From a virus (lineage: Duplodnaviria > Heunggongvirae > Uroviricota > Caudoviricetes): a stretch of DNA of 35,657 bases. Of the stretch, positions 1 to 32,039 are shown piece after piece. The position numbers were made by a program, and so were the translations under genes. The DNA lies in IMG/VR virus record IMGVR_UViG_2541047892_000001; one strand, written 5' to 3'. Under the pieces are notes generated by a model that worked only from the letters and a program-made list of their open reading frames with translations, searched no databases and was not told the DNA's origin. Every line of letters starts with the position of its first letter. The stretch's first letter is position 1.

Positions 1-95
1 TTTTCTTCTGAAATGTACCCCAGGCTGGCAAAGGCTTATCCGACCAATAAATTACCGGATTTACGGGGCGAATTTATCCGTGGCTGGGATGACGG
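1..95. repeat. Inverted repeat arm (95 bp, perfect) paired with 1324..1418; truncated by window edge
   Basis: Reverse complement of 1..95 is identical to 1324..1418; first mismatch is at nt 96/1323. Confidence 0.85.
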
Positions 96-384
96 GCGAG
101 GGATTGATGCAGGACGTGCTTTATTGAGCTTTCAAACTGGGATGCTGGAAAAACACCGCCATATTGTTGTAGCTAACGATGGGTATGACACAAAGGATGA
201 ATGGGAGTTGGCCACAATTTTCAAAAAAACATATTCACAAGGCCGGGGACTTGATGCTGCAAATACAGGAGGGAGTTTGATTCCATCACCAACGCTTCAT
301 TCACGAGGAAGTATTGGTAACACTGGTGGTAGTGAAACTCGCCCCCGCAATATTGCATTTAACTATATCGTGAGGGCGGCTTAA
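1..384 (+). CDS. Alternative tail-fibre C-terminal segment, 5'-partial (frame open from window edge)
   Basis: Frame is open from nt 1; translation FSSEMYPRLAKAYPTNKLPDLRGEFIRGWDDGRGID... matches the internal sequence of the minus-strand tail fibre (1008..2003) then diverges, ending in the same TRPRNIAFNYIVRA motif. Confidence 0.6.
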   Translation, partial: FSSEMYPRLAKAYPTNKLPDLRGEFIRGWDDGRGIDAGRALLSFQTGMLEKHRHIVVANDGYDTKDEWELATIFKKTYSQGRGLDAANTGGSLIPSPTLHSRGSIGNTGGSETRPRNIAFNYIVRAA

Positions 385-390
385 TTATAC

Positions 391-1008
391 TCAACTGGCT
401 GCTGCCAGAGGCATTTCCGGCCAGTTGATATCCGGTGCAGTGCTGATGTCAGTCGCATTAAGCGCATCTATGAAATCAAGCACGGCGTTTAGTTTTTCCG
501 TCTCCTGGGGCGTCAATCGGCGTCCGGCTCGTAGTTTGAGATTAATAAGCTCAACAGATGCCATTGCCTGTTCCTCAAGTTGCTGACGATGCGCTCCGGC
601 AGCTTCCAGTTCTGCTGCGTGCTGTCGTCTCGTATCTGTCACCCAGGTCTCACCATCCCAGACATCATAGATGGTAGCTGGCTGTTTCACCGTCGTATCT
701 GAAGGGTAATCTCCCGGCTGTGTGATTTGCACAGCGTTACCATTCTCTGTGCTGTAAACCGTTTCGCCTCTGTGGTCTGGAACATATTTCCAGATGTTCT
801 GGTCGGTATCACGACAGACAGCGAAGCCGGGGCGTTTTTCTGGTGGCGCGTCAATGCATGAGTGAGCCGGAATTCCAACACCATAAGCGAGATATTCAAC
901 AGTGGCAGAGAGATATTCACGGTTTTCAGCATCGTAGTTATAAACGGTAATATCGCCTGCAGTTATAGCGATACCATTCTGATCAAGTACTGCAGCAGCA
1001 TTATTCAT
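391..1008 (-). CDS. Tail fibre assembly protein (Tfa / Mu U / P2 gpG-like)
   Basis: 205 aa; C-terminal region LTPQETEKLNAVLDFIDALNATDISTAPDINWPE is typical of tail fibre assembly chaperones; immediately downstream of the tail fibre on the same strand. Confidence 0.85.
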   Translation of the reverse strand: MNNAAAVLDQNGIAITAGDITVYNYDAENREYLSATVEYLAYGVGIPAHSCIDAPPEKRPGFAVCRDTDQNIWKYVPDHRGETVYSTENGNAVQITQPGDYPSDTTVKQPATIYDVWDGETWVTDTRRQHAAELEAAGAHRQQLEEQAMASVELINLKLRAGRRLTPQETEKLNAVLDFIDALNATDISTAPDINWPEMPLAAAS

Positions 1009-2003
1009 TAAGTAGCCCTTACAATATAGTTAAACGCAATATTACGGGGGCGGTTTTCCGTTCCTGTATTCCCTCCGTTGGCACCTAATCTATAAACACC
1101 ACGAGTGCCAATAGCACGTAGTGAAGATGGAACTTTTACACCTGACTCATCTGTTTTAACAATCCCGCCATCACCGTATGTAGCCAGTATACCAGGGTTT
1201 GTTCCTGCACGGGTGCTGTTTGCAGCAAGCCCTTCACCGGTCCATAACTCCATATAGTGAGTATGATCCATAACCGAATGTGGTTGTGCATTAAGCAAGA
1301 AACGCCCTGAATCAATTCCCCGTCCGTCATCCCAGCCACGGATAAATTCGCCCCGTAAATCCGGTAATTTATTGGTCGGATAAGCCTTTGCCAGCCTGGG
1401 GTACATTTCAGAAGAAAATGCTGCGCCGTTACATTTCAGCCACCCTGCTGGTGGTGTTGCTGAGGGCCACGGAACGGGCACACCAACGGGCAGTGCAGAG
1501 CCTTCCCCCAAACCAAGGTTTTTGACAAACAGCGCAGGATCAGGAATATCTGCGCCGTTCTGGTCTTTAGCCAGCTTTTCCGCCAGCTTGTTCAGTACCG
1601 TAGTCGCAAAGTTTGGATCATTACCGAGAGCGTCAGCCAGCTCTTTAAGCGTATCCAGTGTCTCAGGGGCGCTGCCTGCAAGCGCCGCAAGTGCTTTGGC
1701 CACAAACTCCGTCGTCGCCAGCTTTTTGCTGTTATCGCCATTTGCAGGTGTAGGTGCTGTTGGTGTGCCGGTGAATGCCGGACTGGCTTTCGGTGCATAC
1801 TGGGCATGCGGGTCTGCTGCCGCGATGTGTTTCGCAAGGTCAGCCCCGCCTTTTTCAACCTGTTGCTTCAGGTACAGCGTGCGGCTGGCCAGTTGTTTAC
1901 CCTGACGGTTAGAAATTCCGTCAGGCCCGCCCAGAACGGGGTCAGAGACCTCAATCTGGTAGATGCCGTCTTCCCACTGTGGGGTTTCAGGTAGATTTGC
2001 CAT
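1008..2003 (-). CDS. Tail fibre protein
   Basis: 331 aa; N-terminal MANLPETPQWEDGIYQIE...GKQLASRTLYLKQQV is a recognisable phage tail-fibre N-domain; followed by Tfa; contains the inverted-repeat arm. Confidence 0.85.
   Translation of the reverse strand: MANLPETPQWEDGIYQIEVSDPVLGGPDGISNRQGKQLASRTLYLKQQVEKGGADLAKHIAAADPHAQYAPKASPAFTGTPTAPTPANGDNSKKLATTEFVAKALAALAGSAPETLDTLKELADALGNDPNFATTVLNKLAEKLAKDQNGADIPDPALFVKNLGLGEGSALPVGVPVPWPSATPPAGWLKCNGAAFSSEMYPRLAKAYPTNKLPDLRGEFIRGWDDGRGIDSGRFLLNAQPHSVMDHTHYMELWTGEGLAANSTRAGTNPGILATYGDGGIVKTDESGVKVPSSLRAIGTRGVYRLGANGGNTGTENRPRNIAFNYIVRAT
1324..1418. repeat. Inverted repeat arm inside tail-fibre gene, partner of 1..95
   Basis: Direct comparison of the two strands; lies inside the 1008..2003 CDS at the point where the two fibre C-termini start to diverge. 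Confidence 0.85.
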
Positions 2004-2584: not shown

Positions 2585-3680
2585 CGGACACCCCTGTCAC
2601 GTTAAGAGTGATTGCCGTACAGTTTGCCCATTCGTTTTCTGCAACCACCCGCAGTGCCGGTGTCACCAGTTCAACCTGGTACACCCCGGAAACGGACAAT
2701 GCACTGATAATCTGGCTGGGGACAATATCGCGTCCCAGCGTGGCGGCACGTGATGCCACCCAGTTCTGTATGGCGCTGTTAGCGTTGTCCTTTACCGACA
2801 TTGCATCCTGATCACGATAGATCGTAATCCTGGCTTCAATGGTGTAATCCACCTGAACAGGTGTTTTAGCCCGCACGGTATCAGTGAGTGGTCTGACTTT
2901 TTCGTCAGAACAGAAACTCTCTACCAGAGTGAGGATACTGCTGTCTGGCAGACCAGTGCTGAGCAGTGGATACAGCTCGACAGTACCGGGAACGGGAGAA
3001 AGAACAGCGACGTCGACAATACTGGGATGCGCCCCCATGGCATGAAAACGGTATGCACCACGGCTTCCGGCATTGGTGAATGACTCCGGGGCCAGCCTGA
3101 TACGCTCCCGGAGTCGGTCATTGTCTTCCTGCTCTGAACCGCCAGTGCTGGCCGTCAGATTGGTCACCAGCAGGTCAACGTTATCAATCTCATCAAGCAG
3201 CTGACTGACCTGAGCCGGTTGCCAGCCGTTGCCAGAGGTACCCGGCTCAGTACAGGTGGCAGGGGCATTGACCAGTTGCAAACCGGCCTTCAGCACTACA
3301 TCTGTATCGGTGGCAAAAATCACGCTGTCGGAAGCGCTGACGCGGGTGCCTGCCGGGATCAGCACATCAATGGCCAGTGCCTCATCCACAGAGAACTGAA
3401 GTGTGGTGGTGGCAGGCTGCGCGGGAAGGCGGTATACACCAACCAGTTCTCCGAGGTAATCAATCATCGGCTCCCGGGAAAAGGCGACCAGATTCAGCTT
3501 CGCCGCCTCCTGTACCGCCACCCTGACCAGCATTTCGCGATAGGCCCACAGATCTATCAGCAGACGTTCTGCCTGTGCCGGGTACAACGTTTTGCCGGTA
3601 TCCGCTTCATATTTCGCAATCATTTCTGCCGTGATTTTATCGGCATCGAGTTCAATAAAATCGGGTTCTGTCAGCGCCAT
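2577..3680 (-). CDS. Baseplate J-like protein (P2 gpJ / Mu gp47)
   Basis: 367 aa; family-typical length and position downstream of the gpW-like protein. Confidence 0.85.
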   Translation of the reverse strand: MALTEPDFIELDADKITAEMIAKYEADTGKTLYPAQAERLLIDLWAYREMLVRVAVQEAAKLNLVAFSREPMIDYLGELVGVYRLPAQPATTTLQFSVDEALAIDVLIPAGTRVSASDSVIFATDTDVVLKAGLQLVNAPATCTEPGTSGNGWQPAQVSQLLDEIDNVDLLVTNLTASTGGSEQEDNDRLRERIRLAPESFTNAGSRGAYRFHAMGAHPSIVDVAVLSPVPGTVELYPLLSTGLPDSSILTLVESFCSDEKVRPLTDTVRAKTPVQVDYTIEARITIYRDQDAMSVKDNANSAIQNWVASRAATLGRDIVPSQIISALSVSGVYQVELVTPALRVVAENEWANCTAITLNVTGVSDG

Positions 3681-4018
3681 AGCAGTTCCTGAGTACGGGG
3701 TTGTCCGTCTGAGCCTTTCCAGCTCACCCGGAGCGTAAGATGTTCGCCGTCGACGGCGGGTTTAACCGACATAAGCTGGCAGCGGGGTTCCCAGCGCCTG
3801 ATGGCATCGACGGATTCGCGAACCACATGCGGAATGGCCCGGTCGACAGGCCAGTCGATATAAAGGTGCAGATTGCTGCCGAACTCTGGGCGATGCGGGT
3901 CGCTGCCGCGGGGAGTCCGCAGGATGATCTGGATGGACTGCTGGATATCATCCAGCCCCCGGACGATTTCGCCGGGAGCCTGCAGAGCCGGTTGCCAGAA
4001 TACTGAGGTCGTTTTCAT
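3671..4018 (-). CDS. Baseplate protein, gpW / gp25 lysozyme-like (Mu gp46)
   Basis: 115 aa; LDDIQQSIQIILRTPRGSDPHRPEFGS matches the GPW/gp25 family motif. Confidence 0.85.
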   Translation of the reverse strand: MKTTSVFWQPALQAPGEIVRGLDDIQQSIQIILRTPRGSDPHRPEFGSNLHLYIDWPVDRAIPHVVRESVDAIRRWEPRCQLMSVKPAVDGEHLTLRVSWKGSDGQPRTQELLWR

Positions 4019-4089
4019 GGGGGCAGTATTGCCCCAGTAAGAAAAGAACGATATTAAAGGGATTTAAAAAGGAGTTATTGATACGTTTG

Positions 4090-4965
4090 TTAAATTACGA
4101 AAACCTTGACGATAAGTTCTCCGTCTTTAGAGACTCTCTTCCCCTCAAGATCAGATTTCAGCCCCTCAGAATTAGTAATAAGCTGGTTCGGATCGTAGAT
4201 GACACACCAGAGATTTTTGCAATCAGAGTGCCGACGATAATGCTCTATATCGATAATAAGTTCATCGCCGATTTTCTTTGCATGAGAACGATCACGAACA
4301 ATTTTGGTTTCCAGTACTAATTTATGCGCAGGTAACAAAAAATCCATTCGAGTACTTGAACCAGCGTAACTTGGAGTAAACTCTTCTGGGCGGATGTCCT
4401 GAACCCATGGTCTGAGCAATGCATGGAGAAGGTCTTGCACGTCATATTCATTGCTAAAAGATAATGACTGGCTTCCTTTTCGCCTATGAGTAAGTGGATG
4501 CATTGCTCGCTGTAAGCCTTTGACCAGCCTTTCCAGTAAGTTCTCAACTTTTTCTGGCATTACTGGCTGTTGATAAGTAATTATGGTCTCTGGGTAATCC
4601 ATATTGTGTGACGGGATGTGGCCTTCAGGCAACACTCGACCAAAACGATAATATCTAAGTCCATTCTCTTGTAACACAGCTTCAATTCTGTCTCGTTTTT
4701 CCTTCCATTCTGCATATTCGGGAGTACCTTCTTTTGGAGGTAAATCCATAAACTCCTCAATTACTCCGCCCAGAACTGCCAGACTATCTGTATCTGGATC
4801 TTGCCCTGCAAGAAATAACCAGTCTTTCCATTTTGTACTATGAGATCCTGCCGGAGGGTTTCCTGGTGCTCCCGAAGTAAGAAATAACGTATCTAAAGCT
4901 GCATGAGAGCCTGAGTTAGCAATGACATCGCCAACTACTTTACATAAGGATCTTGATAACCGCAT
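4090..4965 (-). CDS. Accessory (moron) protein with predicted C-terminal PD-(D/E)xK nuclease fold; candidate defence gene
   Basis: 291 aa ORF in an AT-rich island between two conserved baseplate genes; C-terminal NEYDVQDLL...RMDFLLPAHKLVLETKIV fits the E...D...ExK pattern; GGGGA ribosome-binding site 5-9 nt upstream of ATG. Confidence 0.6.
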   Translation of the reverse strand: MRLSRSLCKVVGDVIANSGSHAALDTLFLTSGAPGNPPAGSHSTKWKDWLFLAGQDPDTDSLAVLGGVIEEFMDLPPKEGTPEYAEWKEKRDRIEAVLQENGLRYYRFGRVLPEGHIPSHNMDYPETIITYQQPVMPEKVENLLERLVKGLQRAMHPLTHRRKGSQSLSFSNEYDVQDLLHALLRPWVQDIRPEEFTPSYAGSSTRMDFLLPAHKLVLETKIVRDRSHAKKIGDELIIDIEHYRRHSDCKNLWCVIYDPNQLITNSEGLKSDLEGKRVSKDGELIVKVFVI

Positions 4966-5046
4966 TTAAGTCCCCGCCAAATTAGTGTTAATTAAAAAAT
5001 TCTATCATATCCGCGGGAGAGGAAATGGAGTCACATACTTGAAAAA

Positions 5047-5559
5047 TTAGTGAGAGTGATGATTGGAATTCTGTCCATCTGCAAATATGTTACCAGTCGC
5101 ATGGGTACTCCCTTTGATTTCAAGATTGCCGTTCACCATGATAGTGTCAGCTGTCAAATCAATGGTTTTCCCTTTCAGACTAATACCCACTGCAACCTCG
5201 ATCACCACATGCTCGATACCTCCTTTGACCGTCAGCGTATGGGTCGCGCGGTCATAACTGAACTCCGCGCCATCAGCGTACTTCGTGCCCCGGACGTTTT
5301 TATCACCGAACGGCGGTTTATCGACGTCTGAGTACACCGCGCCCAGAATAACACCATCCTCGCCGTTGGCATCGAGCAGCACCTCAACCTGCTCCCCCAC
5401 GTCAGGGAGCCAGTAATCCTTGTTATCCTGGGTATTGCGCTGCAGCACGTTAAGCCAGTTTGTGCGCAGATTATCGCATTCAGGCAGACGAACGCGGGCC
5501 TGAACCCTGTCGGCATCAACGGCACTGACCGTACCGACCTGGCGGGTGACACCAGTCAT
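5047..5559 (-). CDS. Baseplate spike / assembly protein V (P2 gpV / Mu gp45)
   Basis: 170 aa; sequence and position typical of gpV. Confidence 0.85.
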   Translation of the reverse strand: MTGVTRQVGTVSAVDADRVQARVRLPECDNLRTNWLNVLQRNTQDNKDYWLPDVGEQVEVLLDANGEDGVILGAVYSDVDKPPFGDKNVRGTKYADGAEFSYDRATHTLTVKGGIEHVVIEVAVGISLKGKTIDLTADTIMVNGNLEIKGSTHATGNIFADGQNSNHHSH

Positions 5560-6710
5560 TTTTTCTTCTCCTTAATCACCGTCGATGTACTGCCATCCGG
5601 GTGATAAACCGTGAGTTTCTGAGTTTTTTGTTTTTTCCCTCTTGTGACTGGCCCCCGTGCCACTTCCAGCTCTGTGGTGTAGCCGCTGTTACGCTCAAAC
5701 GCATGGCGGGCAGTGATTATCAGCCATGGACCGGATAATTGTCCAAAGCCCACCAGTTCAATTTTGTTGCCTGCTGTCAGTTGAGGCGTTCCCGTCAGCG
5801 TCAGGGAGCCGTTCTGCTGGTATTCGTTATGTCTGGCCAGTGCTGAATCCGCTTTAATCCGGGCACTGTCCGGGTCGCTGACGCGGCTGTTAACTTTAAG
5901 TGAGTCAGCGCTGGTAACCTTACCGCCTTTGAGCTTTTTGTCGCTTTCACGGGTACCACCATCAGCTTCGTAGACGATCAGTTTTTTACTGCTGCTTTTC
6001 TGGTGTTTTACCTTTGCAGATTTATAGACCCGGTTGATGGTGTCACGCAGGGAAAAGTGGGCCACATCCTGCGGTTTTAACTGCCTGACCGGCTCCTGAC
6101 TGCGCAATGTGGCCAGATGAGAAAAAATCAACTGGTCACTGACCACTTTCACTGCATAACCATACTCGCTGGCCAGCCGGCGCAGAAAACCCACGTCGGT
6201 TTCAGCATACTGGGTCACCCGGTCGATTCTGATGGACTCAATGCTGCCCACCAGTTTCAGCCGGTGCTTTCTGGCAATCCGACCCGCAACAGCTGCCAGC
6301 GTGGTGTTCTCAAAACCACGGCTGGATTTAGTCCGCAGAGCACTGTTAACCGAGGTGGCCACCCCACGGATAGCGACAACGGACGCGGGCGAACTCACTT
6401 CGATCTCGTCTATTGAGAATGTACCGTAGGACAGCAGTTTCTCGCCCTGATAACCCATTTTCAGCGTCAGCGTGTCACCCTTGCCCGGATACCACTTATC
6501 CAGCCAGCGGCCATCGGTGTCGTCCAGCTCCACCTCAATGGTATCGGACTCATTTTTGATGTTATCGCTCCAGACCACACGGGTGACATAAGGCGCGATA
6601 TCAGAGGTGATGTTTTTCTGCAAATACCACAGAGTGAATACCGGCGTCAGCACATCGCTGACGCCGGTTAACGCTGATGTGGCTTGCGCAGTACTGTTTA
6701 TCTCAGCCAT
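5556..6710 (-). CDS. Tail/baseplate hub protein, gpD-like (Mu gp44)
   Basis: 384 aa; late control gene D family features; stop/start overlap with neighbours. Confidence 0.75.
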   Translation of the reverse strand: MAEINSTAQATSALTGVSDVLTPVFTLWYLQKNITSDIAPYVTRVVWSDNIKNESDTIEVELDDTDGRWLDKWYPGKGDTLTLKMGYQGEKLLSYGTFSIDEIEVSSPASVVAIRGVATSVNSALRTKSSRGFENTTLAAVAGRIARKHRLKLVGSIESIRIDRVTQYAETDVGFLRRLASEYGYAVKVVSDQLIFSHLATLRSQEPVRQLKPQDVAHFSLRDTINRVYKSAKVKHQKSSSKKLIVYEADGGTRESDKKLKGGKVTSADSLKVNSRVSDPDSARIKADSALARHNEYQQNGSLTLTGTPQLTAGNKIELVGFGQLSGPWLIITARHAFERNSGYTTELEVARGPVTRGKKQKTQKLTVYHPDGSTSTVIKEKKK

Positions 6711-17358: not shown

Positions 17359-18180
17359 TTATCCTCTCAGTTCCTGTTGTGCCAGTGGCTGAAACGTACC
17401 CTGATAGCGGGCCAGGTCGGGACGGTATGCTGCCCCCGGTGCATAAGACCAGCCGACGTCGGTGGTCACCTTCGTGGTGCCGGTATTAAAGGTGGCCACG
17501 TTCCGCATTTCGCCGGTTTTCTCTGAGACCAGTTTCAGTTCCTGGCCCATGACAGAGCCGGAGCTGATAACCTTCAGGCCACGGGCACGTACATCCGCCG
17601 CACTCAGGGCAATCACACTACAGCGGCAGCGCCAGCCGTTCGGCGGGTAAAATGCCTGCCAGAACGGGTCATCCCAGCGCAGCACCAGACCATGCAGCGC
17701 CAGATGGCTCCTGCGGGTATGGCTGTCGTTGATGCCGGTATACATCCAGTACGGCCTGTCGTCGACGTTTTCCATCTGCTCCGCCCAACGACCGGCGCTG
17801 TAGAGTACGGACATATTGGTGCGAAAGATGGTATCGAGCCGCCACGGACTGCCCTGCTGAATGGTGACCGGCTCACCCGTTACCGGGTCAGTCGTGTCAC
17901 GTGGTCCCCACCATCCCTTACGCTTCAGCACCGGCTCCAGCGCCTGCCGGAACCAGCGATCGGTTTTTCCTTCATCGACAGCCTGCTGCAGTGCCCCGCG
18001 AATATCTTCCAGGATATCCAGGCGGGTCACTTTAGCGACGGTAAAGGCGCGGGCATGGGCTTCCTGCCACATCTCCTCCCAGTCCCAGGTAATCTGATAC
18101 CCTTTGGACTTCAGGTAGCTGACTGCCCGCTTCGGGGGAAGCGTCATGCAGTACGCCAGTTCAGCCGTTGTCACGCTCAT
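17359..18180 (-). CDS. Head morphogenesis / minor head protein (Mu gpF family)
   Basis: ATG at 18180 preceded by a GGGGG ribosome-binding site; the ORF-track start at 18207 is TTG; overlaps the portal 3' end. Confidence 0.8.
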   Translation of the reverse strand: MSVTTAELAYCMTLPPKRAVSYLKSKGYQITWDWEEMWQEAHARAFTVAKVTRLDILEDIRGALQQAVDEGKTDRWFRQALEPVLKRKGWWGPRDTTDPVTGEPVTIQQGSPWRLDTIFRTNMSVLYSAGRWAEQMENVDDRPYWMYTGINDSHTRRSHLALHGLVLRWDDPFWQAFYPPNGWRCRCSVIALSAADVRARGLKVISSGSVMGQELKLVSEKTGEMRNVATFNTGTTKVTTDVGWSYAPGAAYRPDLARYQGTFQPLAQQELRG

Positions 18181-19654
18181 GCAGACGCCCCCAGATATTT
18201 GCCACAAAGAGAATGCGGGCCAGCCGCTCCTGCAGATCGTCCGTGTTCATCTGAGGGTAGAGCTCCGCCAGTTCGCCCAGCAGCTCAGACGGGTTAACCC
18301 CGTTTTCGACCCGCCTGAACAGAGGTGCCAGGACGGGTTCCAGCGTGCCATTTAACACACCTCCGTTCATCAGAATGTCCAGCGCGTCGTCAAGCTGCTG
18401 TTGTGCATCATGATCGGCGCTTATCGCCTCGGCAAACTCCGCAGGCACTGCCCCGTCCGCAACCGGTGCATCAGAGAGGTCAATATCCCCCTCCTGCAGC
18501 TGGTACTCCCGCATGAAGTACTGCGGGGTCAGGCGTAGTCCCGCGCGGGTGAGTTTTTCGTCGCGGGTGGCACGGGTGTCATCAATGGCCTCCTGTTCCC
18601 ACATGGCCCAGACCGGACACGGCACATCGCCGAAGTTCAGGGTGACCACCGTTCTGATGACCTGATTCACTGCCGCCTGAATGATGTCCGCATCCGCATC
18701 GCGGATATCAGCCGTCACCTCCAGCCCGGCCTGTGCAGAGGCCTTGTTACTGTTCGCTTCCGTGGTCTGATTCTGACCGAGTAATGCAATGGAGATCTCA
18801 CTGCGTGACAGCGTGATCAGCTCGCGGAATACCTCGCTGCTGTCCGCCTTGCCATCCGCGGCTTTGAGTTCAATGCTGCTGTCATCGGGGATGGCGGCCA
18901 CAGCGTCCTCCACCATCTGCTCCATGGAGTCCAGCAGTTTTTCAATCTCTGCATCATTTGCACCCCTCGGGTGCTTACCGATCACCCACGGGGAGCCAAA
19001 CTTTTCGGCAAAGCGGAGCCAGAATTTCATCCCGCCTTTCTTGAAGGCGACCGGCCAGAAGCACATGGACAGGTCCGGGAAACCGTAAGGATTGTCATAC
19101 GAGGCATCCTGTGCCGGCACCACGAATTTTGACGGTGACAGCAGCTCACCCTCCACACCCGCATCACGCGCCCGGAAGCGCAGGCAGTTGTCCGTATCAA
19201 ACTGAAACCACTCAGGCGGTTTGCCGACAATATCCGTCACCGCCCACGCCCTGACCGAACGGCCCCACATGATTTCACAGGGCTGATACCCGTAGAGCAC
19301 GGCATCGCTCATCTCACCGATGATGCGGGACAGATCCAGATCGTCGAGCATGTCGCGGATGAAACGGAAGACCCGGGCAGAAGCGTGACCGCGCTCCAGT
19401 CCACGCTCCAGCGATTTGAGCGCTGCTTTACGTCTGCGGATACAGCCTCCGACCAGCGGGTCGGTGCGCAGTTCGCGGTAGATACGGATATCCCGTCCCT
19501 GAGCCTTGAGAATGGGATCAGGATTGGGCAGATACATGCCCAGTCCGTAAAAGTCGATCGCGCGGCTGCGGGAGGCAATCTGCGCGGTCAGTGATTTCTG
19601 AGGCTCAGAAAAAGCAACAAATTCATCGGGTGAAACCCAGATACCCCTCGCCAT
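18161..19654 (-). CDS. Portal protein (Mu gpH family)
   Basis: 497 aa; directly downstream of the large terminase with overlapping stop/start. Confidence 0.88.
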   Translation of the reverse strand: MARGIWVSPDEFVAFSEPQKSLTAQIASRSRAIDFYGLGMYLPNPDPILKAQGRDIRIYRELRTDPLVGGCIRRRKAALKSLERGLERGHASARVFRFIRDMLDDLDLSRIIGEMSDAVLYGYQPCEIMWGRSVRAWAVTDIVGKPPEWFQFDTDNCLRFRARDAGVEGELLSPSKFVVPAQDASYDNPYGFPDLSMCFWPVAFKKGGMKFWLRFAEKFGSPWVIGKHPRGANDAEIEKLLDSMEQMVEDAVAAIPDDSSIELKAADGKADSSEVFRELITLSRSEISIALLGQNQTTEANSNKASAQAGLEVTADIRDADADIIQAAVNQVIRTVVTLNFGDVPCPVWAMWEQEAIDDTRATRDEKLTRAGLRLTPQYFMREYQLQEGDIDLSDAPVADGAVPAEFAEAISADHDAQQQLDDALDILMNGGVLNGTLEPVLAPLFRRVENGVNPSELLGELAELYPQMNTDDLQERLARILFVANIWGRLHERDNG

Positions 19655-26122: not shown

Positions 26123-27109
26123 CTATTTCAAAATATAACGATATTTACTATCTGGAGTGTTTTGTTGGTCAAGTAATAGAGCTCTACATGGGGCGGTCAA
26201 AACACGGGCATAACGACCATCGGGGTTTATGTTGATGTAACAAGTTTTCCCTTTAACACCATAAGATTCAGGTATTATTGCCTGTGTAGACACCGTGAAT
26301 TTAAGGGTATGCCAGCCCGATTTTTGCTTGTAGCTTGAAACCGAATGGAAATCATCTGAGTACTTATTTAACCCTGGAAACATGCTGCGTAATGCTGGGA
26401 TGGAATCTTCTATTATTTTGTCGTTGGTTTTAATGTTAAAAACGCTGGTTTCAGTAGATGCTACTGCTTTAGCATTTCCCCATTTACCAGCGAACACAAT
26501 CATTCCCACGAAAAATATTGCGACAAGAACTAACGCTCCCCCCAACACTACTACATGAGGCTTCCGGCTTCTGGTTGGTACAGTCGCGACTGATTTTGCC
26601 CCGCTGTCCGATGGAGGTGATAGAGTTTTACTCTCATCACGAATATTCAGCAGATCATCAAAATAACCAAACACAGCCTGCAACTGCTCTTTGTCCAGGC
26701 CTTTAAGATGGGTTGTACCGAAATGCTTCAGACAGTATCTGTCACGGTCAAGACGATACCTAGGGTCAGTAAGCACCATTATTTTGCTGACCAGAAGATT
26801 ACAGTCCTTCATATTCTGGATCTGTTGTGCATATCTCTGGAGGATCTCAACCGCACCATGATAATCAGCCGCAGTCATTTCATTAACTGTTTTGGTATTA
26901 AGTTTCGTGTGGATCGTCATCCATAGTTCGCGCTTACTTTCCCCCAGATCAACCAATTCATCCATCAATCTGTGTAAATCGCGTTTTTGCAGCAACGAAA
27001 TTGGTTGCTGGGCAGAGGGAAGTATGTCAGCAGAATAGTTATGAATGGTAACATCACCGCTGACAACGTTACCCACATCTCCGTTAACTGTTTGCTTCTC
27101 TTTACTCAT
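26123..27109 (-). CDS. Hypothetical bitopic membrane protein (328 aa): N-terminal Gly-rich motif, about 190-aa cytoplasmic domain, one TM, about 110-aa C-terminal domain
   Basis: TM helix HVVVLGGALVLVAIFFVGMIVFAG; start codon overlaps the repressor stop (ATGA); AT-rich. Confidence 0.65.
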   Translation of the reverse strand: MSKEKQTVNGDVGNVVSGDVTIHNYSADILPSAQQPISLLQKRDLHRLMDELVDLGESKRELWMTIHTKLNTKTVNEMTAADYHGAVEILQRYAQQIQNMKDCNLLVSKIMVLTDPRYRLDRDRYCLKHFGTTHLKGLDKEQLQAVFGYFDDLLNIRDESKTLSPPSDSGAKSVATVPTRSRKPHVVVLGGALVLVAIFFVGMIVFAGKWGNAKAVASTETSVFNIKTNDKIIEDSIPALRSMFPGLNKYSDDFHSVSSYKQKSGWHTLKFTVSTQAIIPESYGVKGKTCYININPDGRYARVLTAPCRALLLDQQNTPDSKYRYILK

Positions 27110-27567
27110 TTTCTCTTTGTATTTTTGTTCATTATTCCACCTGTTCCTATGGTTACGTTACCTTTGATAACATTCCCCAGAACATCTCCATGAATAACCT
27201 GTTCCGCCCGTTCTCTGGAGGAGCCAGTCGTCAATGCCGACAAAACTGAACCTTTGACTTGTAACGGTGCTTGCCGGTAGTGCTGAAGTAACTCCATTTC
27301 ATCACGTGATAAAGTTATACCTGATGATTCCCCAGTAAGAATGAACTGTACGTTGGCCCCAATTCTTGCAAAGGCTGCAAGTAACTCACCTCCGGGAACT
27401 GCAACCCCTCGTTCATATTTCCCCCACATTTCTCTTGAAACGCCACAAAGGGCTGCTACTTCAGCCTGCTTGAGTGATAACCGCGAACGCTCAGCTTTGA
27501 ACCGCGACGCGCAAAGAGAATCAAAATTCACATAAACCTCATTGACAATGAGAACAATGGTTCTCAT
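27106..27567 (-). CDS. XRE-family HTH transcriptional repressor (putative prophage repressor)
   Basis: HTH_XRE signature LKQAEVAALCGVSREMWGKYERG; divergent from the early operon; alternative GTG start at 27531 with a GAGG site would leave the operator and early promoter outside the coding region. Confidence 0.8.
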   Translation of the reverse strand: MRTIVLIVNEVYVNFDSLCASRFKAERSRLSLKQAEVAALCGVSREMWGKYERGVAVPGGELLAAFARIGANVQFILTGESSGITLSRDEMELLQHYRQAPLQVKGSVLSALTTGSSRERAEQVIHGDVLGNVIKGNVTIGTGGIMNKNTKRK

Positions 27568-27570
27568 AAT
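27542..27570 (+). promoter_or_regulatory. Early promoter: -35 TTGACA, 17-bp spacer, -10 CATAAT, with an operator-like inverted repeat in the spacer
   Basis: TTGACA at 27542..27547 and CATAAT at 27565..27570; spacer contains ATGAGAAC-aatg-GTTCTCAT (27548..27567); 48 nt upstream of the first early gene. Confidence 0.55.
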
Positions 27571-27617
27571 CTATCACATATAAAACAAACATCATTGCAT
27601 CAACAAAGGAGACAACA

Positions 27618-27806
27618 ATGACTTCCGAACAAGTTAAAACTCTCTTCCGTCAGCGTGGTATCACGTTTACCCGCTGGGCCGAAGAACACGGCTACAGCCG
27701 CAATGAGGTCTATCGTGTTCTCAATGGACAGACCAAAGCTCGTTACGGCAAAGCCCATGAAATTGCCGTAAAGCTGGGATTAAAACCCACGTCAAATGCG
27801 GCATAA
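27618..27806 (+). CDS. Small Ner/Cro-like HTH DNA-binding protein (first early gene)
   Basis: 62 aa; AAGGAG 6 nt upstream; layout resembles Ner/Nlp-type regulators (weak, from memory). Confidence 0.65.
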   Translation: MTSEQVKTLFRQRGITFTRWAEEHGYSRNEVYRVLNGQTKARYGKAHEIAVKLGLKPTSNAA

Positions 27807-27858
27807 ATTTTCCATATATGCAACAGGTTATCACATATTGCAAAAATGGAAATGTGAC

Positions 27859-28167
27859 ATGAGTAAAGTAAATATCTCCAGTTCCGGGACCCGCATCCTA
27901 CGTGTACTCAAAGCTCTACGCGGTCACTCTCTGAACGGTGTTTCTAACGGTGAACTGGCATCAGCCCTAGATGAGTCCCCGGCGAACATCAATCGAGCAC
28001 TCAATACCCTTATCGAAGAGGGACTAGCCCTGAAACTGGAAAACGGGCGTTTCGCACCAGGCATCCAGTTGCTGCAGATCGCCATGGCCCACAGTAACGA
28101 GATGGCACGTGCACAGGATCGCATTAACGAAATCAACCAACGTGTTATTTCAGGTAGTCGTTTGTAA
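27859..28167 (+). CDS. Winged-helix DNA-binding protein
   Basis: ILRVLKALRGH...GVSNGELASALDESPANINRALNTLIEEGL is HTH-like; start uncertain (ATG 27859, or 27796 overlapping the previous gene). Confidence 0.55.
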   Translation: MSKVNISSSGTRILRVLKALRGHSLNGVSNGELASALDESPANINRALNTLIEEGLALKLENGRFAPGIQLLQIAMAHSNEMARAQDRINEINQRVISGSRL

Positions 28168-28177
28168 GGAGTAATCA

Positions 28178-29089
28178 ATGGGACGCACCAAATCACCGGT
28201 TAGCACTGAACTGAACGTCGAGGTACCGCTGTCGGATGATCTCAATGTCAGTCTAAACGCCATGACACAGCATCGCATGGAAATCATGCAACAGTTCGGC
28301 GATGGTCTGCCCTATGAGCGCGATCGTGTTGTCCATGAGGCACGCTTTTATATGGCACAGAGCGCTGAGGCCATGCTGGAGGCAGGTAAGCGGCTGATAA
28401 TCCTTAAGGAAAATGAACCACACGGGGAGTTTATAAAGATTCTTGAAAGTGAGTTGGGGCTGGCATACCGGACATCTGTGAGAATGATGCAAGCATCGAC
28501 AAAATACTTATCCCCGGCGCTGAAACCAAATGTGCCAACGTTGGCACATTTGGGAAAAGCCAAACTTTTCGAATTAATGACAGAAGACGACGAAGAGCTT
28601 GCCGAACTGGCCGACGGCGGCACAGTTGCCGGCATGACGCTTGACGATGTTGATCGCATGTCAGTACGTGAATTGCGTCAGGCCCTGCGTGAAGCGCGCG
28701 AAACCAACGCAGCACAACAGCGTGTTCTCGCCGATAAAAATGAAAAAATAGACTCACTCTCCACCAGACTGGAGAAGAAATCCCGTATTCAGCCACCTGA
28801 GCCTGATGAAGAGGTGAAGAAACTGCGGGCGGAAGTGACCGCGTTAGCGGTTGAGGCGGAATCTGCCATCGCCGTTCGACTGTCCAGCGCTTTTGAGACA
28901 CTGTGCGCATATTGTGCTGAAAACATGATTGATACCCCCAGAGACTTCATGGCAGGCCTGGTCTGTCAACTGGAAAGCACAGCGCGTAGCCTGCGCTCCA
29001 CATTTGACCTGCCGGACGAGCCAACAGGCGATGTCGCGCCTTCATGGCTGACTGAGCCGACGCCACAGATTAACGGGCTGGAGGCATAA
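28178..29089 (+). CDS. Hypothetical early protein (303 aa) with central coiled coil
   Basis: AAGGAG 6 nt upstream of ATG; lies between the regulators and the transposase; no family recognised. Confidence 0.6.
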   Translation: MGRTKSPVSTELNVEVPLSDDLNVSLNAMTQHRMEIMQQFGDGLPYERDRVVHEARFYMAQSAEAMLEAGKRLIILKENEPHGEFIKILESELGLAYRTSVRMMQASTKYLSPALKPNVPTLAHLGKAKLFELMTEDDEELAELADGGTVAGMTLDDVDRMSVRELRQALREARETNAAQQRVLADKNEKIDSLSTRLEKKSRIQPPEPDEEVKKLRAEVTALAVEAESAIAVRLSSAFETLCAYCAENMIDTPRDFMAGLVCQLESTARSLRSTFDLPDEPTGDVAPSWLTEPTPQINGLEA

Positions 29090-29092
29090 CCA

Positions 29093-30862
29093 ATGAATGC
29101 TGCCCTGACTGAACGACTGGTTTATGTCGCCCGCGCGGCACGTGACGCGGGGCATGGTAAACGCGGTGCAATATACGACGCTGCCTGTGCTGAACTTGGC
29201 ATGTCCCGCGCCACTCTGCTGCGCAGGCTGAAGGAGGTATCTGTGACTGATAAACGCAAAAAACGCGCCGATGCCGGGCGCAGCGCCCTGACCCGCGACG
29301 AAGCCGCGCTGATATCTGCCACACTGCGTGAGGCCACCCGCAAGAACGGTAAGCGTCTCTATTCCATCGCAGATGCAGTGGAAACCCTGCGGGCTAACGG
29401 CTTTATCTCCGCAGGCAGAACAGATGAAACCACCGGTGAGTTTTTCCCGTTGTCCGAAGATGCCATCAGTCGTGCCTTGCGTAACTATGGCCTGCACCCG
29501 GAACAACTGGATGCCCCTGCGCCGCATACCGAAGTGGCCAGTCTGCATCCCAATCACGTCTGGCAGATTGATGCCTCGCTCTGCACGCTTTACTACCTGA
29601 GCAATGGACACAAAGGGCTGCAGGTGATGGACAGCGCGAAGTTCTACAAGAATAAACCCGCTAACCTTGCCCGTATCGCCAGTGACCGCGTGTGGAGTTA
29701 CGAGATTACCGACCATGCCAGCGGCTGGATTTACGTTGAGTATGTGACGGGTGCGGAATCCGGTGAGAACCTGTGTTCTGTGCTTATCAACGCCATGCAG
29801 GAGCGTGGCGGCGCAGACGTGCTGCACGGCGTGCCGAAAATACTCTATCTCGACCCCGGCTCGGCAAACACCGCGGGTATGACGAAAAACATGTGCCGCT
29901 CACTGGGCATCGACCTGATAGCGCACAAGCCGCATAACGCCCGCGCCACCGGACAGGTGGAAAAGGCGCGTGACATTATCGAACGCAAGCTGGAGCCGGG
30001 TCTGAAATTCCGGCCGGTTCACAGTCTGGAAGAACTCAACGCGCTGGCCGCGAAATGGCGTAGCCACTTTAACGCAACAGCTGTTCACAGCCGCCACGGT
30101 AAAACCCGCACGGATATCTGGCTGAAGATTACTGCTGAGCAGCTGAAAAAAGCGCCTTCCGTTGAGGTATGCCGTGAACTGGCTGTGGCGACACCAGAAC
30201 TCCGCAAAGTCACGCCAAAACTTCGTGTCTCGTTCCGGGGCACTGAATTTGACGTATCAACGGTACCGGGCGTACTGGTTGGTGAAAAACTGATGATTAC
30301 CCGTAACCCATGGCGCAGCGATGTGGCACAGGTGGTTCTGACCGGTGAGGACGGCCACGAGACGTTCTTCCTGGTCGAAGAGGTCAGAAAGAACGAGTTT
30401 GGCTTTGCTGAAGGCGCGGCGGTATTTGGCGAAAGTTACAAAGCCCTGCCGGAAACACCGGCACAGACGGCGGCAAAAGAAACCGAAGCGCTGGTCACCG
30501 GTACAGACAACGCCGCAGATGCAGCTGCCGCACGCAAGGCGAAGGCGCTGCCGTTCGGCGGGCGGCTTGACCCGTATAAACATATTGATGACGCCACACT
30601 TCCGGCCTGTATACCGAAGCGCGGTCAGGTCTCTGATGTACGCAGACCGCGCACTGAACAACGTCCCATGACTCATGTGGAGGCCGCGAAAGCCCTGCGC
30701 GATAAGTTCAGCGCCGACGGCCTTACCTGGACGCCGGAACATTACCGCCAGTTAACGGCACAGTACCCGGACGGCGTACCGGAAGCCGCACTGGATGAAG
30801 TAATGGCCACGCTGACCACGCCGGCCCGCAGCAGCGTTATCAGCATTGTTAACGGCAACTGA
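29093..30862 (+). CDS. DDE (rve/integrase-core type) transposase
   Basis: 589 aa; candidate catalytic residues in HVWQIDAS, LYLDPGSANT and a downstream Glu; GGAGG 8 nt upstream; followed by an AAA+ ATPase; no resemblance to the MuA N-terminus. Confidence 0.8.
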   Translation: MNAALTERLVYVARAARDAGHGKRGAIYDAACAELGMSRATLLRRLKEVSVTDKRKKRADAGRSALTRDEAALISATLREATRKNGKRLYSIADAVETLRANGFISAGRTDETTGEFFPLSEDAISRALRNYGLHPEQLDAPAPHTEVASLHPNHVWQIDASLCTLYYLSNGHKGLQVMDSAKFYKNKPANLARIASDRVWSYEITDHASGWIYVEYVTGAESGENLCSVLINAMQERGGADVLHGVPKILYLDPGSANTAGMTKNMCRSLGIDLIAHKPHNARATGQVEKARDIIERKLEPGLKFRPVHSLEELNALAAKWRSHFNATAVHSRHGKTRTDIWLKITAEQLKKAPSVEVCRELAVATPELRKVTPKLRVSFRGTEFDVSTVPGVLVGEKLMITRNPWRSDVAQVVLTGEDGHETFFLVEEVRKNEFGFAEGAAVFGESYKALPETPAQTAAKETEALVTGTDNAADAAAARKAKALPFGGRLDPYKHIDDATLPACIPKRGQVSDVRRPRTEQRPMTHVEAAKALRDKFSADGLTWTPEHYRQLTAQYPDGVPEAALDEVMATLTTPARSSVISIVNGN

Positions 30863-30872
30863 GGAGGGAAAC

Positions 30873-32039
30873 ATGCTGGTACTGAAGCAGCAACTGAAAG
30901 AGGCCCGTATTCCACAGGCGGTGGTGGCGAGAGCTGTCGATGTTTCTGAGGCCACGCTGGCCCAGATTGTGAATCATAACGCGTGGCCCCGCACCAGCCC
31001 CGGAGAAGTGCGCCGGCGTCTTGCGTCCTGGTTGGAAAGTCAGGGGATTGATACAGCGAAGAGTTTTGATGCTGTACAGGGCGCGGCCACTCCCCGTACA
31101 GCGGGTACCACAGATAAAACGAGCCTCAGTGAGGAAGAGAATATGTTACTCAAAAAACAGGTGTTATTCCCGGCAACCAAAAAAGCGTTTGGTCTTTTCC
31201 GTGACCCGTTCGCCGACGAAGCCATGCAGGGTTCTGATGATGTGTTCACCACCCCGGACATTCGCTACGTGCGTGAGGCGTTGTACCAGACAGCCCGTCA
31301 TGGTGGGTTTATGGCCGTCATCGGTGAGTCCGGTGCGGGTAAATCCACGCTGCGCCGCGACCTGACTGAACGTATCAACCGCGAGAATGCGCCGGTAATT
31401 GTTATCGAGCCATACATCATCGCTATGGAAGACAACGATGTGAAAGGGAAAACCCTGAAGGCAGCAGCTATTGCCGAAGCCATTATCAGTACCATCGCAC
31501 CACTGGAAAGCATCAGACGCAGTCAGGACGCCCGCTTTCGCCAGTTGCATCGCGTCCTGAAAGACAGCAGCCAGGCGGGGTTCAGCCACGTTCTGGTGAT
31601 TGAGGAGGCCCACAGTCTGCCCATTCCGACACTGAAACACCTCAAACGCTTTTTTGAGCTGGAGTCCGGTTTCAAAAAACTGCTGTCCATCGTGCTGATT
31701 GGCCAGCCGGAACTGGCGACAAAACTGTCTGAACGCAATATGGAAGTCCGTGAAGTCGTTCAGCGCTGTGAGGTGGTCGAACTTCTGCCTCTGGACAATA
31801 ACCTTGAAGAGTTTCTGACGTTCAAACTGCAACGGGCAGGTAAACAACTGACGGACATTATGGACGCCAGTGCAGTGGATGCCATACGTGCCCGCCTGAG
31901 CAATCCGGGAAGTCATCGTAAAAATATGGTCAGCCTGTTGTATCCGCTGGCCGTCAGTAACCTGGTGATAGCCGCCATGAATCTGGCCGCTGAAATCGGG
32001 GTTCCACAGGTCAACGCTGACGTTGTCAAAGGGGTTTAA
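30873..32039 (+). CDS. Transposition AAA+ ATPase (MuB / TniB / ExeA-like)
   Basis: Walker A VIGESGAGKST and Walker B VLVIEEAH; N-terminal HTH-like segment; GAGGAGGG ribosome-binding site; start 10 nt after the transposase stop. Confidence 0.85.
   Translation: MLVLKQQLKEARIPQAVVARAVDVSEATLAQIVNHNAWPRTSPGEVRRRLASWLESQGIDTAKSFDAVQGAATPRTAGTTDKTSLSEEENMLLKKQVLFPATKKAFGLFRDPFADEAMQGSDDVFTTPDIRYVREALYQTARHGGFMAVIGESGAGKSTLRRDLTERINRENAPVIVIEPYIIAMEDNDVKGKTLKAAAIAEAIISTIAPLESIRRSQDARFRQLHRVLKDSSQAGFSHVLVIEEAHSLPIPTLKHLKRFFELESGFKKLLSIVLIGQPELATKLSERNMEVREVVQRCEVVELLPLDNNLEEFLTFKLQRAGKQLTDIMDASAVDAIRARLSNPGSHRKNMVSLLYPLAVSNLVIAAMNLAAEIGVPQVNADVVKGV

Follow-up and report, generated by a model that had tools for sequence, protein, structure and literature searches.

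A window of 35,657 nucleotides from a tailed virus (IMG/VR record IMGVR_UViG_2541047892_000001; Caudoviricetes) opens with a sequence that recurs, in inverted orientation, inside a tail-fibre gene. This raises the question of whether the repeat delimits a segment whose inversion changes the receptor-binding end of the fibre, in the manner of the G segment of Mu or the C segment of P1, as a sequence-only reading of the window had proposed. Our analysis of the window, of its source scaffold and of related prophages upheld this proposal through an adjacent Gin-family invertase, crossover sites and natural isomers. The inverted repeat is very probably one edge of a Gin/Min-type inversion switch of the Din family, by which a Mu-type transposable prophage alters the receptor-binding tip of its tail fibre; the repeat is real and the switch probably active.

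Extent of the inverted repeat

A check of sequence and register confirmed that nucleotides 1-95 of the window are the exact reverse complement of nucleotides 1324-1418, and hence that the perfect 95-bp inverted repeat first noticed inside the tail-fibre gene is present as described. A repeat search lengthened the arms to 1-117 and 1302-1418 at 96% complementarity, and this pair was the sole repeat of at least 30 nt in the entire 35.7-kb window; a chance origin of a 95-nt perfect inverted repeat in 36 kb can be excluded. The left arm belongs to the conserved Collar-domain coding part of a cassette designated B, which is cut here by the edge of the contig and of the window, and the right arm to the same conserved coding part of a cassette designated C. 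In agreement with the initial reading, both arms lead into divergent coding sequence that closes with a common terminal motif, RPRNIAFNYIVRA, and because this motif is present in both cassettes a second, weaker inverted repeat is found at 334-385 and 1007-1058.

The length of 95 bp is an artefact, because the window begins at a contig edge. Its position 1 corresponds to position 8003 of the source scaffold (L007; scaffold KE701522.1 of GCA_000460135.1), which matches the window at 100% identity across 7 kb, and the adjacent base of the scaffold opens a gap of 147 N. In L003, an intact sister prophage in which cassette B matches window positions 1-384 at every base, the exact repeat measures 128 bp (equivalent to window 1324-1451) and is nested in an imperfect repeat of ~213 bp that starts at the core of the crossover site described below; in intact relatives, the homology of the right arm extends to this core, at 1515-1516. 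The ~213-bp inverted repeat is conserved Collar-domain coding sequence lying just within each site, and the strand exchange takes place elsewhere.

Organization of the fibre locus

The expressed tail-fibre gene (1008-2003, minus strand) comes after the gpI and gpJ baseplate genes and encodes a protein of 331 aa in which a constant 5' part is fused in frame to cassette C. A Pfam Collar domain occupies residues 174-221 of this protein, which is present without change on 10-12 public contigs. The constant part, Sc (1517-2003, minus strand; ~163 aa), is never displaced and terminates with the tail-type half-site GGTTTTTGACAA; it is identical in all the isomers considered here and collinear with a sister locus (L001, from 9214 onwards) for any attached cassette. 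Alignment of four cassettes and segment mapping placed the currently fused variable 3' part, cassette C, at 1008-1514 (minus strand; ~168 codons), and in this cassette a head half-site leads into ~78 residues that are conserved, beyond which the sequence is hypervariable until the invariant end RPRNIAFNYIVRAT is reached.

The stop codon of cassette C is overlapped by the start of tfa (391-1008, minus strand), a tail-fibre assembly (chaperone) gene of 205 aa with a Pfam Caudo_TAP match (2e-26) and an annotation as tail fiber assembly protein (WP_001057644.1), which constantly accompanies cassettes C and B within one segment of 1610 bp. Convergent with tfa is cassette B (1-384, plus strand), a silent cassette that is promoterless and has no start of its own. 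The window contains the 3' 384 nt of its 477 nt, the first 93 nt and the crossover site lying beyond the window edge, and in sister loci the full cassette comprises 158 codons. A distance of 6 nt separates the end of cassette B from the stop codon of tfa, and no second tfa follows the cassette, which agrees with the earlier remark that only a single assembly gene accompanies the alternative C-terminus. A search for promoters proper to tfa or to the silent cassettes returned one weak sigma-70-like match, against 5.0 expected by chance, and hence no usable candidate. The possibility of a complete, independent second fibre gene upstream, which the sequence-only reading had itself set against inversion, was rejected: these ORFs begin at the crossover site, have no 163-aa constant part and represent 5'-truncated cassettes.

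Crossover site and adjacent invertase

At the outer end of the repeat there is a 26-bp crossover site of the gix/hix type, TTCCCCCAAACC-AA-GGTTTTTGACAA (1503-1528, core AA at 1515-1516), which is unique in the window and was found in none of 100 shuffles; further copies of the repeat were likewise not found in the window. In the sister loci, this site recurs at each cassette boundary, with the half-site TTCCCCCAAACC and the AA core always present (13 loci), and intact relatives have three or four such sites. It resembles the gix site of D108, the published Din-family consensus and the site of prophage Phi2 of EC958 (PMC4134206). Its partner lies ~85-110 nt left of the window, and the inverting unit is the 1610-bp segment that runs from window position 1514 leftwards beyond the edge. 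The breakpoints of the public isomers fall at 1503-1528, and cassette-specific SNPs are never mixed, which bounds the crossover to an interval of 22-25 bp including the core. Exchange between the 95-bp arms, with inversion of 96-1323, had originally been envisaged; the data place it instead at the 2-bp core of the 26-bp site and of its partner left of the window.

The site-specific invertase had been expected outside the window, and leftward extension along the source scaffold revealed it. Past the 147-N gap, L007 has a terminal site in inverted orientation (L007 8159-8184) and then a gene with Resolvase (4e-51) and HTH_7 (1e-13) Pfam domains, which encodes a 190-aa Gin-family serine invertase (L007 8239-8811) and is the last gene of the Mu-type transposable prophage. 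As scaffolded, this gene starts ~235 nt left of position 1. Its product matches the Mu Gin structures 4m6f and 3uj3 (E 6e-90, alignable residues 1-183), conserves the context of the catalytic Ser9 (YIRVSTNDQ) and shares 74% identity with D108 Gin (tblastn), 93% with an invertase from a P1-like phage and 95% with invertases encoded on ~90-kb E. coli plasmids. The enzyme has the size, the N-terminal catalytic domain with active-site serine and the C-terminal HTH of the Din family, and the window site and the L007 terminal site are, as in that family, imperfectly symmetric 26-bp sequences with a 2-bp core in inverted orientation. The invertase ORF of the source scaffold is intact, and its length and domains are identical to those of the invertases in rearranging relatives.

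In the Gin, Hin and Cin systems, the Fis-bound recombinational enhancer lies in cis in the 5' end of the invertase gene. When the invertase gene was compared with D108 gin, third codon positions agreed at 9-11 of 15 within codons 1-45 and at 4-6 of 15 further along, and one Fis-like 15-mer, a match to a degenerate motif, had gene coordinate 71 in each of the two; no such raised identity in codons 1-45 was seen against Klebsiella phage KP12. These observations are suggestive only, a hint that codons 1-45 may contain a Fis enhancer, and inversion in this prophage would presumably depend on Fis and on such an enhancer.

Predicted and natural arrangements

In the mechanism that we propose, the fixed 5' part of the fibre gene ends in the 26-bp crossover site, and downstream of it come two to four 3' cassettes without promoters (C, B, D and A), each opening with the half-site TTCCCCCAAACC and then the core AA. 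The serine invertase encoded just past the cassettes acts on sites in inverse orientation and exchanges strands at their 2-bp core; the DNA between the sites is thereby flipped, and the constant part acquires another cassette in frame. A cassette "head" half and a "tail" half are paired at each site, and inversion preserves this pairing, so that for three segments (C-tfa-B, D and A) 3! x 2 = 12 arrangements are possible, with four resulting fibre isoforms of 331, 322, 317 and 306 aa, each presumably with a distinct receptor specificity.

The sister prophages, in which one tfa accompanies two to four Collar-domain cassettes (C, B, D and A) that lack promoters, agree with these predictions. Seven distinct arrangements were seen among the 12 permitted by the site logic, and all seven obey the head/tail rule, which admits 12 of the 48 conceivable combinations of order and orientation. 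Precise inversion at the cores accounts for the differences among the seven isomers, whose segments are 100% identical, as expected of conservative inversion. In strains 3-72, FEA3, DEF2 and 8178 of a mouse E. coli lineage, the prophage is inserted at the same yehQ site and shows four arrangements. The flank comparison covered 3-72, FEA3 and 8178 and gave no mismatches in 2.9 + 3.5 kb, and the arrangements of these three strains are linked by single inversions; DEF2, outside that flank comparison, was included on its shared site annotation and 100%-identical segments. Three isolates of 8178 have one common arrangement, which speaks against extremely fast switching unless the assemblies give the majority form.

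At the protein level, all four predicted in-frame fusions were found residue for residue among public proteins, on 10, 28, 20 and 224 contigs, the 28 corresponding to the 322-aa Sc-B fusion. When the Sc-B and Sc-A loci were sought with synthetic junction DNA against E. coli genomes, both fusions were also present in complete genomes. Taken together, these loci combine one constant 5' part with several alternative in-frame 3' cassettes, as in systems of the Min type.

Alternative explanations and number of cassettes

Rearrangement of the locus could also be attributed to RecA-dependent homologous recombination between the ~213-bp inverted repeats with the invertase uninvolved, given that these repeats are long (128 bp exact), 95-97% identical and sufficient for occasional homologous exchange. 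Every isomer, however, retains the private SNPs of its cassettes to ~20 nt from the core, and the segments between cores are 100% identical, which confines the exchange to the 22-25-bp interval centred on the Din-type site; moreover, the invertase gene is always adjacent, and the head/tail site rule is always obeyed even though D and A have heads of equal length. Homologous recombination was rejected as the mechanism on this SNP phasing, and we regard it as scarcely credible. It is also quite unlikely that the locus is a frozen relic, in which duplicated fibre fragments stem from past recombination and inversion has ceased in the source genome. Some relatives have indeed lost cassettes (three-site and possibly two-site versions), in the P1-like phage vB_EcoM-673R5 the annotation splits the invertase into two ORFs, and the activity ascribed to the source strain derives from relatives and not from reads. 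The sites and the invertase ORF of the source scaffold are nevertheless intact, and near-clonal strains differ by precise inversions alone. From these relatives we infer that the Gin/Min-type switch also operates in the source genome.

The number of cassettes in the source genome (two, three or four) is hidden in the assembly gap. A minimal two-cassette switch, in which one 1610-bp C-tfa-B segment lies between two sites, is a serious contender that falls a little short of being the probable solution. The scaffold has 147 N where two sites would require 76 missing nucleotides, three sites 515 or 548 and four sites 987, and Klebsiella phage KP12 has exactly this two-site, one-tfa layout; the cassette count also varies within the lineage, since relatives with the same fibre protein have three or four sites. 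On the other hand, gap sizes in short-read scaffolds are rough estimates that are unreliable inside repeats, and three or four sites occur in each of the five other loci that have this same fibre protein and reach far enough to be counted. The suggestion that the repeat could be part of a multi-segment arrangement thus holds for the family, as the sister prophages with three or four sites show, whereas for the source genome itself the gap size fits two sites best.

Comparison with known inversion systems

Across the family, the switch is a Min-like multiple-inversion host-range system, and this type of mechanism has been known since Mu, P1 and p15B; its sole odd feature is the single assembly gene, convergent with cassette B. 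The Min system of plasmid p15B was described by Sandmeier, Iida and Arber in 1990-1992 (cited in PMC5903667 and PMC6906374). As in p15B, a Din-family serine invertase is found beside a cluster of overlapping invertible segments, with one constant 5' fibre part, several alternative 3' cassettes and 26-bp sites with a 2-bp core. The host element is, in contrast, a Mu-type transposable prophage and not a P1-like plasmid, and at its fullest it has four sites, three segments and 12 isomers where p15B has six sites. For p15B, 240 isomers are reportedly formed, a count equal to that given by the head/tail rule (n! x 2) for five segments. The likeness to Min is indirect, as the nearest relatives of the invertase (93-95% identity) are found on P1-like phages and plasmids with at least five near-identical sites.

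The G segment of Mu and D108 is similar in that a transposable myovirus has its invertase at the genome end beside the fibre genes, and the sites are alike (TTATCCAAAACG-TC-GGTTTACAGGAA in D108 versus TTGTCAAAAACC-TT-GGTTTGGGGGAA in the prophage). Mu, however, combines two sites and 34-bp repeats with a mirror-image layout of two cassettes and two assembly genes (U and U'), whereas in the prophage there are up to four cassettes, the repeats measure ~213 bp, the core is AA/TT in place of TC/GA, a single assembly gene is present, and com/mom are absent after the invertase. The Mu G-type layout (Sv-U / U'-S'v), in which each cassette has its cognate assembly gene, was accordingly not found in the prophage, with its one tfa, while D108 has both U and U'.

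Inversion of the same architecture has been demonstrated experimentally. Prophage Phi2 of E. coli EC958 (Forde et al. 2014, PMC4134206) resembles the present locus in the position of its 26-bp sites, which lie outermost in an imperfect inverted repeat of 227 bp (96% identity), and in its Collar-domain 3' cassettes, TT core and half-site GGTTTGGGGGAA; both orientations were observed in PacBio reads. In the P2-like prophage of EPEC E2348/69, inversion at a "shufflon" with three repeats was shown by PCR, which confirmed four variants (Goldberg et al. 2014, PMC4272514). The EC958 and EPEC prophages are P2-like, the former with mirror-image cognate assembly genes and the latter with three sites, in contrast to the Mu-like family described here, with up to four sites and a single assembly gene. 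In the Enterobacter phage FRphi, long reads and deletion of gin showed Gin-dependent shuffling of three C-terminal fibre isoforms, all of which were present in prophage and virion DNA, although only one infected the tested host (PMC13418256); FRphi, likened here by its published description, is a phage with lambda-like regulation and comes from another host. The R64 shufflon is also similar in selecting one of several C-terminal ends of an adhesin by multiple inversion, but it relies on a tyrosine recombinase (Rci) and on different sites (sfx), and its target is a conjugative pilus protein. The recombinase of the present locus is a serine resolvase/invertase, and the term "shufflon" fits the prophage element only loosely.

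Inversion explains why short-read assemblies break at the fibre gene of this prophage, the window itself starting at such a break, and why annotations of the same prophage list three to five variously ordered "phage tail protein" fragments. Because the rule of one head half and one tail half (n! x 2) predicts all arrangements and the four isoforms, it is useful for host-range prediction and annotation curation, if with modest practical value, and the system adds a further example of host-range bet-hedging by temperate phages.

Role of the single assembly gene

The one tfa is antisense in half of the isomers, an arrangement that is hard to reconcile with the function of every isoform. One chaperone might serve up to four cassettes through their invariant 13-residue C-terminus, with inversion toggling the co-expression of the chaperone, tfa being convergent with B; we consider this explanation rather doubtful. 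If it were true, the Sc-B fibre, and the D or A fibres when the C-tfa-B segment is flipped, would be made without co-transcribed Tfa, and either these isoforms would fold without Tfa or inversion would also decide whether infective virions or non-infective (or chaperone-borrowing) ones are produced. The single-chaperone layout could serve as a natural system for learning what Tfa recognises.

The inverted repeat and its truncation at an assembly gap

Nucleotides 1-95 of the window are, as the sequence-only reading had stated, the exact reverse complement of nucleotides 1324-1418, and the arms reach 1-117 and 1302-1418 when a few mismatches are allowed. The 35.7-kb window contains no other repeat of at least 30 nt, so that a chance origin need not be considered. 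The right arm is contained in the tail-fibre gene (331 aa; 1008-2003, minus strand), the next gene being tfa, a tail-fibre assembly gene of 205 aa (391-1008, minus strand). An ORF on the plus strand, which begins with the left arm and extends past the window edge, has its stop at 384, 6 nt from that of tfa, and RPRNIAFNYIVRA is the shared terminus of both fibre ends.

The length of 95 bp previously ascribed to the repeat turned out to be an artefact of the window edge. The exact fibre protein is present on about a dozen public contigs, and over 7 kb the window shows 100% identity with one of these, the source scaffold L007 (GCA_000460135.1, scaffold KE701522.1). Window position 1 corresponds to L007 8003 and adjoins a gap of 147 N (L007 8004-8150); the window thus starts where the assembly is interrupted, and the 95 bp are a truncated length. 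An intact sister prophage, L003, carries the same cassette as window 1-384; its exact repeat measures 128 bp (equivalent to window 1324-1451) and is nested within an imperfect one of about 213 bp. We infer that a K=96 de Bruijn assembler would end a contig at just this point, 95 nt into a perfect repeat. The size of the gap in the source genome fits two cassettes best. Further short-read contigs of this prophage likewise stop within cassette repeats (L009 at 8068; L010, just 2.5 kb long). The invertible region systematically breaks short-read assemblies.

Crossover sites and invertase

The sequence TTCCCCCAAACC-AA-GGTTTTTGACAA occurs once in the window, at 1503-1528 (none in 100 shuffles), where the constant part of the fibre gene meets the variable part, 85 nt past the right repeat arm. 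In related loci, every cassette start carries the half-site TTCCCCCAAACC and the AA core. The second half-site depends on position: the constant part has GGTTTTTGACAA, the site beside the invertase has CGTTTTCGTCTT, and cassettes D and A are followed by CGTTTCTATGCC and CGTTTTCATGCT, respectively. Across the gap, L007 reads GCAGAGCC-TTCCCCCAAACC-AA-CGTTTTCGTCTT, followed by the invertase ORF. The pattern agrees with that of D108 gix (TTATCCAAAACG-TC-GGTTTACAGGAA) and also with the published consensus for the Mu, P1, e14, p15B and S. boydii sites and with the EC958 Phi2 site, which has GGTTTGGGGGAA in common with the sites described here and terminates a 227-bp repeat of 96% identity (PMC4134206). 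The earlier proposal of an invertible segment is supported in its substance, but the crossover is placed at the 26-bp site 1503-1528 and not in the 95-bp arms. The long inverted repeat is conserved Collar-domain coding sequence directly inside each crossover site, and the partner site of the left arm would lie 85-110 nt to the left of window position 1.

Past the gap, at L007 8239-8811, an ORF of 190 aa whose product has Resolvase and HTH_7 domains encodes the recombinase that had been expected outside the window. The protein matches Mu Gin crystal structures over residues 1-183 (E 6e-90) with a conserved active-site serine context. Its identity is 74% with D108 Gin, 80% with the invertase of phage pro483, 95% with invertases of E. 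coli plasmids of about 90 kb and 93% with that of a P1-like phage with at least five near-identical sites in its fibre region. These identities suggest that the invertase lies nearest the Min lineage of P1/p15B-like elements. In the P1-like phage, vB_EcoM-673R5 (ON470615.2; region 2945-6572), the sites are nearly identical to those of the prophage, and the invertase is annotated as two ORFs (Hin2/Hin1), which reflects either a frameshift or a sequencing error. Along codons 1-45 of the prophage invertase gene (L007 8239-8375), third codon positions agree with those of D108 gin about twice as often as in the rest of the gene, with no rise in amino-acid identity; a Fis-like 15-mer is also common to both genes. 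These data suggest that a cis-acting enhancer may be embedded in the 5' coding sequence.

The prophage codes for an rve transposase (589 aa), an AAA+ MuB-like ATPase (397 aa), a Mu-type portal and an HTH repressor-like gene product (window 18161-19654 and 27106-32039); the transposase, the MuB-like protein and the portal identify it as a Mu-type transposable myovirus. The invertase is its terminal gene, the position that gin holds in Mu and D108. Unlike those phages, in which a com/mom module follows the invertase, this prophage lacks com/mom there and ends sharply (…GGCGCATCA) 78 nt past the invertase stop codon (L007 8812-8889). Host DNA beyond this end differs in each locus, the chromosomal insertion site being different per genome.

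Arrangements of the invertible segments

Segment CB (1610 bp between cores) comprises cassette C, tfa and the oppositely directed cassette B and has heads at both ends, and segments D (470 bp between cores) and A (437 bp) have one head and one tail each. Core exchange between inverted sites always restores head-plus-tail sites, so that only beyond CB can D and A be directed away from the constant part's side, and no more than 12 (3! x 2) of the 48 conceivable arrangements are allowed. All seven arrangements seen in public loci fit this rule: with a prime denoting a segment directed back towards the constant part, these are [CB+]D'A' (L003), [CB+]A'D' (L005), D[CB+]A' (strain 3-72), DA[CB+] (FEA3), DA[CB-] (8178, three isolates), [CB-]D'A' (CFIAFB20190167) and A[CB+]D' (DEF2). 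Three sister prophages (L004, L006 and L008) have three sites, without cassette A and with the D head joined straight to the terminal tail half-site. This structure is what a rare site-specific deletion between direct sites would leave, and cassette loss may be invertase-mediated too. Klebsiella phage KP12 has a two-site version.

Four arrangements occur among strains 3-72, FEA3, DEF2 and 8178, which were all isolated from mice and carry the prophage in yehQ. The 2.9-kb and 3.5-kb flanks, compared among 3-72, FEA3 and 8178, contain no mismatches, and single inversions connect the arrangements of these three strains; DEF2 has the same insertion-site annotation and 100%-identical segments. Differences between the four cassette heads number 16-37 in the first 230 nt, and no chimeric heads were seen among them. 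On one side of the core, the first distinguishing base is 20-23 nt inward, and on the other it directly adjoins the core. This limits the exchange to 22-25 bp and excludes general homologous recombination along the repeat. When core exchange was carried out in silico, four in-frame fibres of 331, 322, 317 and 306 aa were obtained, all of them present residue for residue in public protein sets (10, 28, 20 and 224 contigs, respectively).

Switching of the fibre C-terminus by an invertase is textbook knowledge for Mu, P1, e14 and p15B. In its full form, as in sister prophages, the element is a Min-like system with four sites and three segments carried by a Mu-type prophage; its mechanism is already known, and the repeat is ordinary and well explained. 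Such switching has also been observed directly: in E. coli, EC958 shows the inverted orientation in about 50% of PacBio reads (PMC4134206) and an EPEC prophage has three repeats and four PCR-confirmed variants (PMC4272514), and FRphi has three gin-dependent isoforms (PMC13418256). In systematic surveys, tail-fibre and assembly genes are some of the most frequent targets of programmed inversion (PMC9881135).

A single tfa for up to four cassettes

One feature of the system is still odd: a single tfa, convergent with cassette B, accompanies up to four cassettes. It is antisense to the late operon in isomers with the constant part fused to cassette B (L017) and in the 8178 arrangement, and no independent promoter for tfa was found. 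Isoforms without a sense tfa may fold independently of Tfa, or Tfa may be supplied from elsewhere. Such isomers may also yield non-infective particles, a reading with a parallel in FRphi, in which only one of three isoforms was infective on the tested Enterobacter host (PMC13418256). As summarized in PMC9608196, citing North et al. 2019, Tfa proteins bind the fibre through a variable N-terminal domain and drive trimerisation through a conserved C-terminal one. The 13-residue end is invariant in all four cassettes and is plausibly a common docking element for Tfa.

A possible nuclease gene among the baseplate genes

Between the baseplate genes gpV (5047-5559) and gpW (3671-4018), a gene at 4090-4965 (minus strand) encodes a 291-aa protein with a DpnII-MboI restriction-endonuclease domain (Pfam 4e-47) that also matches the PADLOC model Aga_Helical-REase Class II (1.8e-30). 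No counterpart is present at the same position in Klebsiella phage KP12. The GC content of the gene is 0.40-0.43, against about 0.55 in its surroundings. The gene looks like a moron, possibly one for a defence or exclusion nuclease.
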